Source of the DNA: Promethearchaeota archaeon
Lineage (GTDB): Archaea > Asgardarchaeota > Lokiarchaeia > Sigyniarchaeales > SOKP01
Length of the DNA: 32,179 bases
Assembly: GCA_016930515.1 (NCBI GenBank)
Contig: JAFGGO010000066.1
Coordinates: 1 to 32,179, forward strand
Direction of reading: 5' to 3'
The notes under the pieces are model-generated. The model saw nothing but the letters and a program-made list of their open reading frames with translations, ran no database searches and was not told the DNA's origin. Position 1 is the stretch's first letter, and every line of letters begins with the position of its first letter. Positions 6,334 through 29,812 of this stretch are shown in pieces. The translations under genes and the position numbers were made by a program.

Positions 6334-6627
6334 TTACAGAAATTCAGATTTTAATATCAATGCAAGTTCGTCCTTTTCCTCCGAATCTAACTCCTTCGAA
6401 GACTTTCCCTCGTTTTGGAAATTATCAAGATTCTCGTCGTGATATAAACAAGACACGATCGTGAGAGCGTTTTGAAAAAAAACATCGCTTTTAATATCTT
6501 TTGCGACTTCTATGAGCTTTAAAATCGAATCGTTTACGAAAAGTTCCTTAATTGTCTCGTCGCCAACCTTTTTAATTTTCGAATAATTACTGAACACGCT
6601 TGAATAGTATTCGAGTTCTGAAGTCGT
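6334..6627 (-). CDS. Hypothetical acidic helical protein (track start GTG 6597; proposed ACG start 6627)
   Basis: Open frame; SD-like GGGGAGAGGT lies 6 nt before the in-frame ACG. Confidence 0.7.
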   Translation of the reverse strand, partial: TTSELEYYSSVFSNYSKIKKVGDETIKELFVNDSILKLIEVAKDIKSDVFFQNALTIVSCLYHDENLDNFQNEGKSSKELDSEEKDELALILKSEFL

Positions 6628-7289
6628 TTTTAAACCTCTCCCCTTAACTCTATTTATTAATCAAATTTTGAGCGAACTAAACAGATAGATATAATTGTAT
6701 TAACTATTTAATAGATCGCAAAAAACCTCCCAAGTTGTGTCATCAGCACGAACAATATCTAATGGACATTTTTGTGGAAATTAAAGATACGACTTCTTAC
6801 TTGATCGAGGTATAGGAAAACGCGTTATTAAATTTTAATAGATTTTTGAGTATCTATAACTTAAATTTAATCAAGGAAAAATTTTGAAAAGAAATTCGTT
6901 TTAATCTATTTTAGGTTATTACAATCGAAACATTGGGTTTCAATTAGACCATCTCTATCTGAATTCCACTCTATTTTTAGGTATTTATGAAACTTGCAGT
7001 GGAAATCTTCCCCAAGTAAAATTCCTGTACCACGAGAGATATTTTTTTTTACTTTTTCATTTAAATACGATTTATATCATCTATTAATAGTGATAAGGCA
7101 AGTAATGCAAAATCAAAACGAATAATTATTAATTGCGAGTATTACACCGGTATATCCTGAATGATACTCGAATTCAATAACGATTTTCTACTTGTATTAC
7201 TTGGATGGTACTTGGATGACTAGGATAATAATCGTCTTGGTCATATCCAGATAACTCACTTAAAACGATAAAATGGGTGTTTGAAAATA

Positions 7290-15377: not shown

Positions 15378-15485
15378 AATCTTTTTTTATCCTATTTTTA
15401 TTAAAAGTTATATATTGTTGGATGTTATTAGAATATTTAATTAAGAAACTTAATACAATTCTTTTAAAGTAGAGAGGAGATAAAC

Positions 15486-16196
15486 ACGCAATATATTGGA
15501 AATTTAGGATTATTAACTCTTATTCTCATAAGTGTCGTATATTCAGCTTGTTTTTTGTACTCGCTAAAATCCCAGGTCAAGAGCGCTGATAAAACTAAAA
15601 TATTTCTAATGATGTGGAGTATGGCAGTTGCAATCACATATATCCCATGGATATTAAGAATTGCATTACTTGATGTCTATGAAACGAATACCGCTCTATT
15701 ATATCCTTATTGGGCACTTTGTTATGCAATGGGCGCATTAGCGCTAATTTCACTGGATATGGCCGTTTTAAACCTTAGCTCTAGTCATGGATCTTTGTTT
15801 TTCAAGGTTCTTTTCGTAATCATCCCCTTATCTTTCGCAAGTGTTATAATCGTCTTGATAATGGGATTTCAGGTAGATTTGGTTTTATTCATGGGCGTGA
15901 ACGACCTTAAGATTGGAAATGTAATCGTTTATATTTACTTCATCGTTCTTATCGTGTTTTATATTGCCCTCCCTAACGCGATTTTTATAAATTTTTTAAT
16001 CAAGGAACGATCTCAAAAGACTTTTGCGTATAAACGAGTAAGAATAATCGAGATAGGGGTTTTAATGTTCTCAATAGGGATAGCGCTCGATGGAATGAGA
16101 CTTCCAAGCGATATAGGCATATTCATTGCGAGAGTAATACTTCTTATGGGTGGATTATTTGTAGCAAGGGGTTTTTTCATGCAGCAAGAAACCTGA
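15486..16196 (+). CDS. Seven-TM membrane protein (HisKA_7TM-like, standalone); track start 15555, proposed ACG start 15486
   Basis: Six TM in the track ORF plus an in-frame upstream helix LGLLTLILISVVYSACFLY; GAGGAG lies 6 nt before the ACG. Confidence 0.75.
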   Translation, partial: TQYIGNLGLLTLILISVVYSACFLYSLKSQVKSADKTKIFLMMWSMAVAITYIPWILRIALLDVYETNTALLYPYWALCYAMGALALISLDMAVLNLSSSHGSLFFKVLFVIIPLSFASVIIVLIMGFQVDLVLFMGVNDLKIGNVIVYIYFIVLIVFYIALPNAIFINFLIKERSQKTFAYKRVRIIEIGVLMFSIGIALDGMRLPSDIGIFIARVILLMGGLFVARGFFMQQET

Positions 16197-20863: not shown

Positions 20864-22444
20864 TTAAATTCTAAAGAAAGCTTTTCCGTCCATTATCCAA
20901 AAAGGAAGTATGTCCTTCTTCACCAATTCGTCGATGTTCTGGTTAAAGCGCTTGGAAAGAAAATTATTGGAGATAATGAGTGCTTTTTGGTCTCGCGCAT
21001 ATTTAAGTAAGAGTTCTTCGACAGGAATTCCATCGGGAGCTTGTAAAATGAGATTTTGTTTCACGCATTTTAAATAGGCATCTGGCAAATCAATACAGTT
21101 GGCGAGAGAGGCATCTGATACGATGACTATCTTCTTTGCACCCAAGTCTCTTAAAGCGTCGTAAACGAGTTTGATGTTTACGAGTTGCGCTCCACCGTTT
21201 TTTGAAAGAGAATGATAAGCCACATTCGTACCGTCAACGACAAACACCCTACCTTTTAAGGTTAATTTTTGTTTTTTCCTAAAATATAGCTCGTTTTGAA
21301 GAGAATTTTCAAATACTTTTTGCTCTACTCGATTAAGCGTTTCTAAGAACCACTTCTTAAAAGACACAAAATCAGAAAGAGGCGATTCGATCCCGTGCTT
21401 CTTTTGTGGTTGTATTCTTTTAATTGAGTTCGAAACACTAGTGTTATCTCGAATTAATTTCGAAATTAAGGCATCTGGAACCTTTAAGTAAGTAAAGATT
21501 TTTTTAAAATCCTCATTATCGGTTTCTGACAACTCAAATTTCGTGTAATTCATCGCAACCCAACTGGCAAGGAAGTCTTCGGGAATTCCGTCCTTCCAAT
21601 GATGATTTCTCAAGTAATCATACAATTTTTGAGGATCGTAGAGTTGTTCCAACTCTAAATTCGCAGGATTAACCTTATCGTGTCGATAATCGTGGAGAAC
21701 TTGAACGAATTCCCGGGCAATTTGCTTGTTAATATTGATAACGAACTCGTATTCCTTGACGAAGGTCTTTAGTTTATTGAATCTATTTTGATGTGAGTTG
21801 GAAAACTTACCTCCTTTCGTTTCGATCTGGGGTAGTTCTATATCGAAATAGAGTTCCACGAACTTTAAGATCTTGTTCCAATATTTGCGAGGATATTCCG
21901 CTAATATCTCGTTTAAAAAGCCAAGCTCTCCCGTATCTACATACTCCGCGAATATTGAACCTGCAACGGTTTTAATTTTCTGGATTTTATCAAGCAGGAT
22001 ATTCTGATTTCTCGATGTTTGTATTAAAAGATTTTCAAACTCGAGATCCAATTCAGAAATATTGTAATTCAGAAACGAATTGTTTTTCTTGTTAAAAATA
22101 ACATACTTATTGTCGTTTATCTGGAGATGAACGATCTCGTTTACATTTAAAATACATCTTATTCCTTTTACTTGGACAATCTGGTTTAACATTTCCTCTC
22201 TGAGATTATAGATCAAGAACAAGGTCGGATTTTGGGAATAAGAATTGTTTAGTTCGCTCTCAACTATCTCCTTGAGGTTGTGCAATGCTGTTGATTCGAA
22301 ATCAATGACATTGTGTCCAACGGTAAAGGTTTCTAAAACATGAAGGTGCTTCAAATCGATATAAGGCAACAAAATAAGGTTTTTTTGCTGAAAAAATAAA
22401 ATATTCAGAAATTCTGGTCTGATTAGATCAATACCTGCGTCCGT
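20864..22444 (-). CDS. Large protein with C-terminal NYN/PIN (Zc3h12a-like) domain, probably degenerate; track start 22372, proposed ACG start 22444
   Basis: VFVVDGTNVAY..VSDASL..PVEELLLKYA..IISNNF; GGAGGTG lies 7 nt before the in-frame ACG. Confidence 0.8.
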   Translation of the reverse strand, partial: TDAGIDLIRPEFLNILFFQQKNLILLPYIDLKHLHVLETFTVGHNVIDFESTALHNLKEIVESELNNSYSQNPTLFLIYNLREEMLNQIVQVKGIRCILNVNEIVHLQINDNKYVIFNKKNNSFLNYNISELDLEFENLLIQTSRNQNILLDKIQKIKTVAGSIFAEYVDTGELGFLNEILAEYPRKYWNKILKFVELYFDIELPQIETKGGKFSNSHQNRFNKLKTFVKEYEFVININKQIAREFVQVLHDYRHDKVNPANLELEQLYDPQKLYDYLRNHHWKDGIPEDFLASWVAMNYTKFELSETDNEDFKKIFTYLKVPDALISKLIRDNTSVSNSIKRIQPQKKHGIESPLSDFVSFKKWFLETLNRVEQKVFENSLQNELYFRKKQKLTLKGRVFVVDGTNVAYHSLSKNGGAQLVNIKLVYDALRDLGAKKIVIVSDASLANCIDLPDAYLKCVKQNLILQAPDGIPVEELLLKYARDQKALIISNNFLSKRFNQNIDELVKKDILPFWIMDGKAFFRI

Positions 22445-22476
22445 TGTTTAACACCTCCAATAATATAAGAACAAAT

Positions 22477-23202
22477 TTATAGTAATTCATACTTGAAGTA
22501 GTTAAAAATAACCTGTACCATCAAGTCTTCGAAACACGGCACGACATTATCACCTTCTAGGGCCTTTGAAGGATATAAAACTCTCGTGTCGTCTGAGTAG
22601 GTTTCTTCAGATGGAAGTCCCATATCTTTTTTAAAATCACCAATTGGTATTGCGTTGTCCAAGTCGCGCTTATTGAGCTGAACAACATATGGAATTTGTT
22701 TTGGACCCGCAAAACTTTTTAATTCCCTGAAACTGCGCTTGTTTTGTTCCATTTTCTCTAGATCTGAATCCGCAACAAATACAATACCATCAGCACCATC
22801 AAGTACATATTCCCTCGTAGAAAGGAATCTTTCTTGACCCGTACATGTGACTACTTGAACCACGATTTCGTACAATTTTTGGTCGATTTCAAAATCAAAG
22901 GATAAGAAAAGTGAATCTTGCCAAAGCGTTCGACCGTCGGTAGTTTCGATGGAATATCCTTGACTTATTTCGGTCATGCTAAACTTTTCTTTCAAGCGAA
23001 AAAAGTTCGTGGTCTTTCCAGACTCCCCTGGCCCCCAATACACGATTTTAAATTGTATCACGCCGTCTTTTCTCCTGTTAGCCTTGCCAGAGTTCTGACT
23101 TGGCGCTGATTCTTCCTTTTTGTTTGATGTATTGATTATCATTTGATCATCATCTCGAGAGGATCTAGGTAGCACTACCAATCTTATCCTTGAAAATCTC
23201 AT
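22477..23202 (-). CDS. mglA: MglA-family small GTPase (true start probably GTG 23175 or ATG 23142)
   Basis: KIVYWGPGESGKTTN, TTDGRTLWQD, TCTGQ, VLDGADGIVFVADS, NKRDL. Confidence 0.9.
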   Translation of the reverse strand: MRFSRIRLVVLPRSSRDDDQMIINTSNKKEESAPSQNSGKANRRKDGVIQFKIVYWGPGESGKTTNFFRLKEKFSMTEISQGYSIETTDGRTLWQDSLFLSFDFEIDQKLYEIVVQVVTCTGQERFLSTREYVLDGADGIVFVADSDLEKMEQNKRSFRELKSFAGPKQIPYVVQLNKRDLDNAIPIGDFKKDMGLPSEETYSDDTRVLYPSKALEGDNVVPCFEDLMVQVIFNYFKYELL

Positions 23203-23713
23203 TCTTCAGGTTTTTAATATGTTCTTTAAGCTGAAGCTCGTTCATCTTGAGAGTATGTTTGATATTGTTGCTTTTTTGAATCTCTTGCTTGATCAAAGGA
23301 GCAAATTTTCCCATTTGGAGTACGACTACTCCAATGTTGACTTCCCTATCCGTCAGGAGCACGATAAGGATCTCGCGCTTTCCCTTCTTTTCGAGAGCAA
23401 CGGGACCAAGCGAGCGCACGAACAATTGCATGTTATTGTAAATCAAGCTGGCTCGCTCCAAGTTGTCGGTTTCAAAAAAGTCTTGTCCCTGTCTCGCAAT
23501 ACCATACAACGCAGCGCCTATCGAACCCAAGTCCCAGTAATTTAATTTTTTTTCAAACCGAGAATCTACGGCTATGATTTTCGCGTCTTGGTCTATCGCA
23601 ATTAACCCGTATATATACCCTTTTCGAGTCAAGCGCCCGTAATTAGTCCTGATATCGCTTAAAAGCTCACTTATCTTGTTTTGAAATAACATCTTTGGGA
23701 TTGTTCCATTCAT
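23165..23713 (-). CDS. mglB: Roadblock/LC7 (MglB-like) protein
   Basis: IAIDQDAKII..LGSIGAALYGIARQ..ILIVLL..VNIGVV roadblock pattern; immediately upstream of mglA. Confidence 0.75.
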   Translation of the reverse strand: MNGTIPKMLFQNKISELLSDIRTNYGRLTRKGYIYGLIAIDQDAKIIAVDSRFEKKLNYWDLGSIGAALYGIARQGQDFFETDNLERASLIYNNMQLFVRSLGPVALEKKGKREILIVLLTDREVNIGVVVLQMGKFAPLIKQEIQKSNNIKHTLKMNELQLKEHIKNLKNEIFKDKIGSAT

Positions 23714-23755
23714 TGTCGTTCAATCATTTTTTTTACAAAGATAGAACGATAGAAG

Positions 23756-23770
23756 TATTTAAAGGAAAAA
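23756..23770 (-). promoter_or_regulatory. T-tract/TATA promoter element TTTTTCCTTTAAATA
   Basis: About 43 nt before the mglB ATG; followed by CTTC, as in the radA promoter. Confidence 0.55.
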
Positions 23771-23781
23771 TTTAGGGATCT

Positions 23782-24699
23782 TTATTGAATCTTGTTTATA
23801 ACGGTTTTTTTCGTAATTTTTATTTGATTTAGTCCAGTGTATTGATTTTTCTTTACCAAAACATTAGAAAGAGAAATTTTATCCCCTATATCTAACATTT
23901 TAAAGCATTCTACAGCACGAATCCCCCAAACTACGACTTCGATGTGCTTATCGTTGTTGCATAAAAAGATGCTAAGTAAGAAAGATTTATCGCCGCTTTT
24001 CAAGTTTTTTTCGCCAAATTTCTTGTTTTCCACGATGCCGATAATTTTTTCGTAAAATCCTTCGCTTTCAAATAATCGAGTTATTTTTGGAGCGGCCTGA
24101 ATATATTTCTGCCTTAAATAATTTTTGTTTATTAAGGGCGGAATTTCGTTCTTTTTCACATTTTGGGGCGCTATCTCTAAGAATCCTTTTTTCTTTACCT
24201 GTAGCTCCAAGATTCCTTTTGTGCCTTTCTTAGCGTAGGCACCAATAATTCGCACGATCTCGTTAGGTTTAATATAATCATTACGCATTATTTCAACTTG
24301 CCTGTCCCATAATGTTACTTTTATTTTACCTGTCTTATCTCTCAAGACGAATGATCCTACCATGCCAATCGTGCCGTCCTTTCTCGTAAATTCCTTGATA
24401 CCATAGATGGTTTCAATCCTACCCGAGATTACAACATTGTCAGTATTTTCTGAAAGATCAGCAATATTTGACTCGAAATCGCAATAATCCACATTTTCGT
24501 GCATATATTCCTCTATTTCGAAATAGGTTTCAATAAGGTGTAAGTTTAGGCCTCTTTCCTTGGCAATCACGAACAATAGGGCTTCTGTGGTCAAATAACC
24601 CCCATAATCCCGTTCTTTTTTTTGCATTTCATTTTTAATCTCAGATTCAGTGAGACCTGAGTTGAGAAGAGCGTCATACAATTCGTCAACATTAGACAT
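23782..24699 (-). CDS. Archaeal RPA/SSB-like protein (N-terminal DUF2240-like helical domain + two OB folds)
   Basis: GGYLTTEALLFVIAKERG; EFTRKDGTIGMVGSFVLRDKTGKIKVTLWD; second OB fold IEVVVWG..LDIGDKISLSNV. Confidence 0.88.
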   Translation of the reverse strand: MSNVDELYDALLNSGLTESEIKNEMQKKERDYGGYLTTEALLFVIAKERGLNLHLIETYFEIEEYMHENVDYCDFESNIADLSENTDNVVISGRIETIYGIKEFTRKDGTIGMVGSFVLRDKTGKIKVTLWDRQVEIMRNDYIKPNEIVRIIGAYAKKGTKGILELQVKKKGFLEIAPQNVKKNEIPPLINKNYLRQKYIQAAPKITRLFESEGFYEKIIGIVENKKFGEKNLKSGDKSFLLSIFLCNNDKHIEVVVWGIRAVECFKMLDIGDKISLSNVLVKKNQYTGLNQIKITKKTVINKIQ

Positions 24700-28470: not shown

Positions 28471-28788
28471 ATGAAAAAATTAGAAGAAATAGGTACTTGT
28501 CCAAAGTGTGACTTTTCGATTTTTTCGTACAAGACTACCCAGTACAAGCGATTTGCGAAGTGTTCTAATTGTGGAACCTCGTATTCTTTGCCAAAAAGGG
28601 GTAAATTGTTGAATTCCGCCCTAACATGCCCTATCAGGAATTTTCCTATACTTATCGTGGATAGGAACGAGGGAAGGGCATTTTTCTGGGCAGATCAGCC
28701 GTGCTTTAATTGCGTGCATTACGATAAATGCGAGCCAATTAGTGAACTCGTTTCCGAGTTCAAGGAATTAGAGGTGTACGGTTATTAA
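28471..28788 (+). CDS. Standalone topoisomerase-IA C-terminal-type zinc-ribbon protein
   Basis: IGTCPKC..KRFAKCSNCGTSYSLPKRGKL..CPI..FPIL..CFNC resembles archaeal TopA C-terminal zf-C4 repeats. Confidence 0.7.
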   Translation: MKKLEEIGTCPKCDFSIFSYKTTQYKRFAKCSNCGTSYSLPKRGKLLNSALTCPIRNFPILIVDRNEGRAFFWADQPCFNCVHYDKCEPISELVSEFKELEVYGY

Positions 28789-28807: not shown

Positions 28808-29812
28808 ATGGTCATTATATTTTTTTTAATGTTTGTTATTTCTTTTGCCGTTCGATTAAATCAATGTGAACCAACCGCACTAATAGGTTTTGATAACGAG
28901 TTTGGAGAGCTTCGAACGAGTGAAGAAATTCTAATTGATAAGGTCTACGAGTTTACAACAGATAACCCAGTTAAAAAATTCGAAGACTTGGAGATGATTG
29001 CTGAATATCGTTATTTTTTATATTTCAAGATGGTAACTCCTCATCAGTGCAATTTAATAATTTCTATAATTGATCCAAATGGAACAACATACGACGCTTT
29101 TAACGACTCCAATTTTAATCAAGAGGAGGGTTTGCGGAGCGTTCCATTTGGAGTAGCTATTACTGGAGGGCACGACTTGTATTTTGAAGTTAACGCTTCG
29201 TACAATGTTAATGTCTATATAAGGATAGAACGAGAAATAAAATGTCTTTATGATGTTTTCTCCTCACAAGCCTCAGGAAATGTGATTTTGTATGGAGTGC
29301 ATAAATTCGAAAACGCACTTATTGACACGCAAAATGTGACTCTCCAATCCGATACCGAATACGCGATTTATCTGGCGCGAGTTTCTCCCATTTCCACTGC
29401 GATTGTTGAAAATCAAGTGAAGTTTAATTATTCGCTAACGGATATTGAACGTCAGACCGTTTTCGAGCTTAATTGGAAGAACCTTGCTCTTGCTCCAATC
29501 GGCGAGGTAACAAAATATAGCTTTGGGACCGCCAATGGTGGTCAATACAAATGCAATTTAAATGTAAAGTGCGAATATAATCCCGTGAATATTGCGTTTG
29601 CAATTGTATACGATCACGAAATTAGCAACGAGCTAGAGGAAAATCAAACGGAGATCATACCGAGCGATGGTGCCAGTCAGAATGTTCTTGTGAGTCTTTC
29701 TCCCCTGCAAGTTGTAATATTCGTAGGTGCGTTTGGTGTAATAGTATTCGGGGCGATAGTGGGCGTAGCAAGGAGCAGAAAAAAAAGAAATACAACAATC
29801 AGTAAATTTTAA
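28808..29812 (+). CDS. Exported protein with two beta-sandwich repeats and C-terminal TM anchor
   Basis: N-terminal hydrophobic segment; internal repeat (YxxY..V(T/S)P..FGxAxxG..VN(V/I)); C-terminal TM followed by RSRKKR. Confidence 0.8.
   Translation: MVIIFFLMFVISFAVRLNQCEPTALIGFDNEFGELRTSEEILIDKVYEFTTDNPVKKFEDLEMIAEYRYFLYFKMVTPHQCNLIISIIDPNGTTYDAFNDSNFNQEEGLRSVPFGVAITGGHDLYFEVNASYNVNVYIRIEREIKCLYDVFSSQASGNVILYGVHKFENALIDTQNVTLQSDTEYAIYLARVSPISTAIVENQVKFNYSLTDIERQTVFELNWKNLALAPIGEVTKYSFGTANGGQYKCNLNVKCEYNPVNIAFAIVYDHEISNELEENQTEIIPSDGASQNVLVSLSPLQVVIFVGAFGVIVFGAIVGVARSRKKRNTTISKF

Follow-up and report, generated by a model that had tools for sequence, protein, structure and literature searches.

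Archaea are held to start translation at AUG, GUG and UUG, and to our knowledge ACG is listed as a start codon in no prokaryotic code table. The window analysed here, the whole 32,179-nucleotide stretch that makes up contig C116 of a Promethearchaeota genome (a 4.0-Mb MAG in 190 contigs, 35% G+C, 94% complete), holds a gene that raises the question of which codon its ribosomes use, as a strong Shine-Dalgarno (SD) motif at its head points at an ACG and the frame has no ATG, GTG or TTG for the next 24 codons.

The head of the NYN gene and its operon

On the minus strand the head of the gene reads GGAGGTG (22458-22452), TTAAACA, ACG (22444-22442), and then GAC GCA GGT ATT GAT CTA ATC AGA CCA GAA. 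The SD motif (22452..22458) matches the complement of the archaeal 16S 3' end over 7 nt; the 16S gene itself is not in the MAG, and SD-antiSD pairing is assumed from archaeal norms. The A-rich spacer of 7 nt (22445..22451, minus strand) holds a TAA (22450-22448) that lies in frame two codons 5' of the ACG, so that no start further upstream is possible for the 526-codon frame. The proposed start codon (22442..22444, minus strand), which aligns with the initiator Met of orthologues, stands at a distance (d) of 7 nt from the final G of GGTG, the modal spacing of the SD-led ATG starts in this genome. It is followed by 23 codons (DAGIDLIRPEFLNILFFQQKNLI; 22373..22441, minus strand) that form the family's most conserved N-terminal stretch and are absent from the public gene calls. 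The full coding sequence that we propose, 526 codons plus stop, runs over 20864..22444 on the minus strand.

The first ATG, GTG or TTG in this frame is a TTG at 22372, 24 codons downstream of the ACG and the first of three in-frame TTGs (22372, 22369 and 22354; 22352..22372, minus strand) that the ORF listing and the gene callers have used. None of them has an SD: positions -16 to -4 hold 0-2 G at each TTG vs 5 at the ACG. Reading from TTG 22372 gives 502 aa, while the public calls start at the other two and give 501 aa (NCBI, 22369) and 496 aa (Logan assembly of SRR13394437, 22354); an ATG-started 526-aa version is absent from the protein collection of 5.8 billion proteins. The anatomy given in the original prediction, with an in-frame ACG 7 nt behind an SD, a TAA two codons upstream and no SD at TTG 22372, is therefore that of the sequence as written.

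The gene belongs to a conserved Asgard operon (20864-24699, minus strand) that encodes an OB-fold protein (305 aa), a 182-aa protein, an Arf/Roc-like small GTPase and the 526-aa protein, and the order OB-fold, 182-aa protein, GTPase, NYN gene is kept in loci L001-L003 and in a Logan contig. The 182-aa protein has no Pfam match and looks Roadblock-like by eye. The GTPase gene lies directly upstream on the same strand (22477..23202), and as its stop is found 32 nt before the ACG, the ACG-headed gene is an internal cistron. Its 526-codon product combines an Asgard-conserved N-terminal domain of ~375 aa with a C-terminal NYN (Zc3h12a-like) predicted RNase domain (Pfam PF11977, residues 399-516, 26 bits vs a cut-off of 23). 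In many Asgards the 375-aa N-terminal domain stands alone, in proteins of 374-396 aa without NYN.

The start position across Asgard orthologues

Among 5.8 billion proteins searched, 285 homologues of the NYN gene were found, all from Promethearchaeota and other Asgard MAGs, and the N-termini were read for the best 120 of the 285. Nearly all of these 120 follow the pattern M-D-[TSA]-G-x-D-F-I-x-P-E-F-L-N-I-L-F-F-Q-Q-K-N-L, to be set beside [ACG]-D-A-G-I-D-L-I-R-P-E-F-L-N-I-L-F-F-Q-Q-K-N-L in the window. About 100 Asgard orthologues among them begin M-D-x-G-x-D-F-I-x-PEFLNILFFQQKNL, and the ACG falls exactly on that Met; the alignment of orthologues, which had been put forward as a check on the ACG, thus revealed neither a downstream start nor a conserved Thr. 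The closest orthologue (P0002) has an ATG start and is 526 aa long, the same length as the ACG reading. In a 28-sequence alignment the invariant D2, D6, F12, F17, F18 and K21 are all present in the 24 codons added in the window, as are the near-invariant P10, E11, L13, Q19, Q20, N22 and L23. The 24 residues called plausible in the original prediction hence keep every invariant position of the family, which argues that the extension is under purifying selection.

We also determined which codon stands at the family's conserved start position in 70 species-representative genomes. ATG was found in 39, GTG in 13, TTG in 8, ATA in 5, and ATC and GTA in one each, nearly always 5-8 nt behind GGTGA, AGGTG or GGAGG; these motifs are the orthologous equivalents of the window's SD, at the same place. 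In three of the non-canonical cases an in-frame stop leaves no canonical alternative: in locus L039 the ATA directly follows a TAA, in L044 the ATC has a stop 7 codons upstream, and in L041 (CAZALK010000001.1, locus positions 571-603) the start position holds a GTA that comes directly after TGA TGA AAA and GGTGA. This GTA is two positions off ATG and one off GTG, and no canonical alternative follows for 28 codons.

ACG itself recurs at the same place in a second lineage (~50% protein identity, four metagenome samples), which reads AGGAGGTG-ATAAAA-ACG-GAT, that is, GGAGGTG, 6 nt and ACG. The GTG inside the SD of this lineage is in frame three codons upstream of the ACG and is the start picked by gene callers, which makes the case ambiguous. 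A degenerate scan for further ACG lineages returned this known lineage, one unrelated chance match (L158) and nothing else, and an exact-pattern scan of metagenome contigs for the NYN locus with AYG gave no match. The same-genus genome G049 carries TTG at the start position of the NYN gene, ACG is present at this start in at least two lineages, and the start codon of the family turns over rapidly.

The same SD-internal GTG is found in the window (22454-22452), where it lies one base out of frame, and since it is in frame in the second lineage one could propose that ribosomes start there and shift by +1 into the frame of the gene. This GTG is, however, embedded in the SD and not itself preceded by one, the frame that it opens ends after 8 codons, we see no evident slippery site, and the ATG-bearing orthologues put the start at the ACG-aligned codon; we find such a start barely credible.

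A more serious contender is the recent loss of a start, in which an ATG-to-ACG change has crippled the gene and left either no product or a protein that is 24-30 residues shorter and begins at a TTG. T-to-C is a common transition, the gene callers did take TTG 22369 and TTG 22354, and the canonical starts of the sister genome and of the closest orthologue imply that the ACG is young. That the ACG at the NYN start is not conserved (TTG in G049, ATG in the closest orthologue) is what would also be expected of a young, mildly deleterious mutation. Against this, the frame is intact across all 526 codons, the TTGs lack an SD, and a TTG start would drop the most conserved N-terminal residues of the family. 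Further evidence on this reading comes from the rest of the genome.

Shine-Dalgarno-led near-cognate codons in the genome

SD-led starts are a minority in this genome: ~13% of confident ATG starts have a match of at least 5 nt to AGGAGGTGATCC, a figure that agrees with published remarks on the scarcity of SD sequences in Lokiarchaea (PMC7531240, PMC12993045). The spacing of these SD-led ATG starts peaks at d=7, counted as above from the end of GGTG. When trinucleotides were simply counted behind all GGAGG and AGGAG words of the genome, no ATG peak appeared, because intragenic SD-like words swamp the signal; anchored tests were used instead. A first regex test, in which G/C-containing codons such as CGC and CTG were also somewhat raised, was replaced by composition-controlled frame tests.

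In the first of the tests retained, we took SD motifs unexplained by a canonical start and read the trinucleotide at d=6-8. It was counted as a head if an ORF of 120 codons or more ran on from it, if an in-frame stop lay just upstream, and if that interval held no canonical start. Four codons were enriched: ATT (21 heads, 6.0 expected, p=1e-6), ACG (11, 1.9 expected, p=5e-6), ATC (12, 3.3 expected, p=1e-4) and ATA (9, 4.1 expected, p=0.03). AAG, AGG, ACA, ACT, ACC, GCG, TCG and CCG showed no excess over expectation in this test. The second test compares the frame (0, 1 or 2) of the trinucleotide relative to the long ORF and so controls composition fully; it gave [23,1,3] for ATT, [12,2,2] for ATC, [9,4,2] for ATA and [11,1,4] for ACG (11/16 in frame, p=0.004), while the controls AAG, AGG, AAA and TTT were flat. 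The ACG heads peak at d=7, like ATG. The count of SD-led ACG against other codons that had been suggested as a check therefore does single out ACG, along with ATT, ATC and ATA, from AAG, AGG and the other ACN codons.

The strict SD-led heads comprise 120 ATG, 24 GTG, 26 TTG, 25 ATT, 15 ATC, 14 ATA, 12 ACG and 3 CTG, so that near-cognates amount to about a fifth and ACG to ~5%. Strict SD-led ACG heads number ~11-13 among ~3,700 long ORFs in the 4-Mb genome, and the earlier estimate of about 3 ACG starts in about 30 genes is clearly too high. As the strict filter misses two further ACG heads in the window (sites 2 and 3, described below), the true number is probably a few-fold above the strict count, but nowhere near 10% of genes. 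With respect to position, 67% of ACG heads lie within 60 nt after the end of a same-strand ORF, vs 62% of SD-led and 21% of non-SD ATG heads; ACG heads hence behave like ordinary SD-led internal cistrons. Taken together, these counts indicate that ACG, ATT, ATC and ATA are real, if minor, start codons in this genome. The enriched set fits what a CAU anticodon can pair with and not what mutation alone would give: it includes neither AAG nor AGG, and the transversions (ATT, ATC) are commoner in it than the transitions.

These results bear on the recent loss of the start in several ways. About a dozen genes in the genome are in the same state as the NYN gene, against ~2 expected; the excess is limited to ATT, ATC, ATA and ACG, with no enrichment of AAG and AGG, the two remaining middle-base changes from ATG, contrary to pure decay; and transversions are in the majority. 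We consider recent loss unlikely. A sequencing or consensus error, in an organism that truly has ATG, would need a change of one base, and the two assemblies that give the NYN gene without an ATG start (the NCBI MAG and Logan SRR13394437) probably come from the same reads. They were nevertheless made by two different assemblers, the same ACG geometry is present in a second lineage across four independent samples, errors at one and the same base of about a dozen starts would imply an implausible site-specific rate, and error would not yield the parallel excess of ATT, ATC and ATA. An error seems very unlikely to us.

C-to-U editing of the mRNA, which would turn ACG into AUG, is a further alternative, but we know of no such editing of mRNA in archaea, a DYW deaminase was not found in the 94%-complete genome (in a search without positive control), and the ATT, ATC and ATA heads, which are equally enriched, would be left unexplained. 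In plant organelles, where start codons of the chloroplast are edited from ACG to AUG, a genomic ACG does stand at a conserved initiator Met position as it does here (PMC9845219); such editing would need a machinery that our search did not find and would not account for the other near-cognate heads, and editing is in our view very unlikely.

Seven other ACG heads of the genome could be compared with relatives. In four the ACG falls exactly on an ATG, in one on an ATA, and in two within one codon of an ATG. For the SIS gene (C123:3203) the ACG-aligned codon is ATG in 21/23 relatives and TTG in one, and for both the cyclase (C4:8621) and the GT2 gene (C142:15621) it is ATG in 3/3 relatives; for the methyltransferase (C94:17833) the sister genome has ATA behind the same GAGGTGA, without a canonical alternative. 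In the SIS, cyclase and ABC-2 genes the Pfam domain already begins 5' of any canonical start: SIS_2 spans residues 20-143 of the ACG-started protein, which offers no canonical start before codon 75; the cyclase domain runs from residue 4, with the first ATG only at codon 15; and in the ABC-2 gene (C48:31403) profile position 10 falls at residue 14, with the first ATG at codon 26. The ATG of the ABC-2 relatives falls on a CTG that follows the ACG by one codon, which leaves the assignment of the ACG uncertain there. The head of this permease gene (G000:C48:31380-31410, plus strand; locus L075) reads GGAGGGG-ATG-TAA-C-ACG-CTG, in which an out-of-frame ATG-TAA mini-frame of two codons separates the SD from the ACG/CTG. 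The homologues of the C114 gene are all distant (22-33% identity) and uninformative.

The original prediction held that the geometry of the NYN gene recurs at 15486 and 6627. At both sites a stop in the same frame precedes the ACG and the interval holds no canonical start, and to this extent the claim stands. Site 2, AGGAG-ATAAAC-ACG (15475..15488, plus strand), heads a 236-codon membrane-protein gene (15486-16196), and same-genus G049 has ATG exactly there (1/1) followed by the same YIGNLGLLTL; its aligned SD spacing is shorter than usual (d=3). Site 3, GAGGT-TTAAAA-ACG (6625..6638, minus strand), heads a 97-codon gene (6334-6627) whose sister orthologue (41% identity) reads ATG GTC ATG AGT GAA; the ACG falls between the two ATGs, a match within one codon only.

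Initiation factors, known systems and consequences

We believe it likely that ACG 22444 is the working start codon of the NYN gene, and that it represents one case of a relaxed start-codon habit that is genome-wide and lineage-wide. The support for ACG initiation is comparative and statistical, and is drawn from position, conservation, SD geometry, enrichment and orthologue alignments; the probable non-AUG initiation of the original prediction is strengthened by the ~100 Met-aligned orthologues, the genome-wide SD-led ACG excess and the second ACG lineage. We suggest that the NYN gene is translated as the last cistron of the conserved operon of OB-fold protein, 182-aa protein, small GTPase and NYN gene, and that pairing of GGAGGTG with the 16S 3' end would place the small subunit with its P site 7 nt downstream, on the ACG. 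Initiator Met-tRNA (anticodon CAU) would be accepted there despite the middle-base mismatch, and the product would begin Met-Asp-Ala-Gly, presumably at an efficiency below that of ATG. In Loki-type Asgards, start identity would be relaxed to ATT, ATC, ATA and ACG on SD-led, mostly operon-internal cistrons; the ACG would have arisen from ATG by a T-to-C transition, with quick evolutionary turnover, and would be tolerated because initiation still works. On any regulatory use of the ACG start we can only speculate.

In E. coli, ACG initiates at no more than 1% of the level of AUG and yields protein with an N-terminal Met (10.1101/063800), and Sulfolobus aIF1 rejects AUU in vitro, while ACG ranks with the best non-AUG codons of yeast (PMC4705826). 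Given the discrimination of aIF1 against AUU and the weakness of ACG in E. coli, efficient use of these codons would need a lower stringency specific to this lineage. The genome has a single gene (G000 contig C31; L116:1414-1753, plus strand) for aIF1 (SUI1), the factor that proofreads start codons, and in it an in-frame TGA is followed by ~50 codons without ATG, GTG or TTG. The alignment with M. jannaschii aIF1 (PDB 4MO0) nevertheless sets in at chain residue 3, at the zinc knuckle and seven codons past the TGA, and an ATT at codon 4 (L116:1426), with GTGA 10 nt upstream, is the most likely start. As a hypothesis, a near-cognate start of aIF1 would mirror the AUU of infC and the autocontrol of eIF1 through weak context (PMC4705826), which suggests that stringency may be set by feedback; an aIF1 behind a weak start makes autoregulation a testable idea.

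As for the tRNAs, ~27 were found (ARAGORN with and without introns, and Rfam), many with introns that are long or oddly placed. ARAGORN and Rfam recognised no tRNA-Met of either kind, and as detection was poor and the set is incomplete, this is not evidence of absence; a pattern search of the incomplete MAG likewise returned no initiator-type anticodon stem with CAU or CGU. The codon-anticodon pairing is thus, like that of the SD, assumed from what is usual in archaea.

A broader proposal, in which AUU, AUC, AUA and ACG are regular starts on SD-led cistrons under a lineage-wide relaxed rule, with stringency set through autoregulation of a near-cognate-started aIF1 and with a eukaryote-like repertoire in the archaeal relatives of eukaryotes, seems to us evenly balanced. 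Full-text searches of the literature returned no published description of near-cognate or ACG starts in Asgard archaea. The analysis supports an extension of SD-directed near-cognate initiation, which is of a known kind, to ACG, at an unusual frequency and in archaeal relatives of eukaryotes. The head of the NYN gene has the features predicted for such a start: an SD at functional spacing (GGAGGTG, d=7), a one-base neighbour of AUG that aligns with the initiator Met of orthologues, no canonical start able to supply the conserved N-terminus, and a class of ACG heads commoner than chance in the same genome (11 vs 1.9, p=5e-6).

The closest parallels are the SD-directed near-cognate starts of bacteria, such as the AUU of E. 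coli infC with its autocontrol by IF3, where the SD sets the position of the small subunit, a codon one base away from AUG occupies the P site, the initiator tRNA is used and expression is weak (PMC4705826; 10.1101/063800); the same arrangement is here predicted from sequence. The likeness extends to the gene of a fidelity factor itself starting on a near-cognate in infC (PMC4705826), as would aIF1, which lacks a canonical start. Annotated bacterial starts include rare ATT, ATC, ATA and CTG, whereas ACG is absent from them and belongs to the lowest activity tier in E. coli (10.1101/063800). In this genome, in contrast, ACG is as enriched as ATC and ATA, the share of near-cognates among strict SD-led heads is far above bacterial frequencies, and the Asgard factors are of eukaryotic type (aIF1, aIF2) and not IF3.

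Non-AUG initiation in eukaryotes and viruses at ACG, CUG and AUU (mammalian ACG, Sendai virus C') also counts ACG among the better near-cognates (references cited in PMC9845219 and PMC4705826), and would share with the Asgard case a reading by Met-tRNAi under eIF1/aIF1 surveillance, eIF1 autoregulating via a weak start site. It differs in that eukaryotes rely on scanning and Kozak context, whereas in the Asgard case an SD within a polycistronic mRNA would set the position of the ACG, and in that CTG, the best eukaryotic near-cognate, is rare here (3 cases). Among archaea, ribosome profiling of Haloferax volcanii gave ~30% near-cognates among putative alternative initiation sites; these were set aside as possible false positives and are mostly alternative or internal (PMC7261190), unlike the near-cognates described here, which are the sole possible start of conserved full-length genes.

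If a few percent of SD-led genes do start at ACG, and more at AUU, AUC and AUA, then aIF1 and aIF2 of the closest relatives of eukaryotes would operate at a different stringency. The start of one family, which cycles through ATG, GTG, TTG, ATA, ATC, GTA and ACG across species, also offers a natural series on the selection of start strength. For annotation, both public calls of the NYN gene (501 and 496 aa) lose its most conserved N-terminal segment, and near-cognate starts would lead standard gene finders to shorten such proteins in general; the same fault would extend to dozens of genes in each genome of a lineage heavily mined for eukaryotic signature proteins. On the plus strand of the window, an ATT (28784-28786) follows GAGGTG at a distance of 7 nt; it is in frame with the ATG at 28808 that opens a 334-codon ORF, lies 8 codons 5' of it, and may be a near-cognate start or mark an N-terminal extension.
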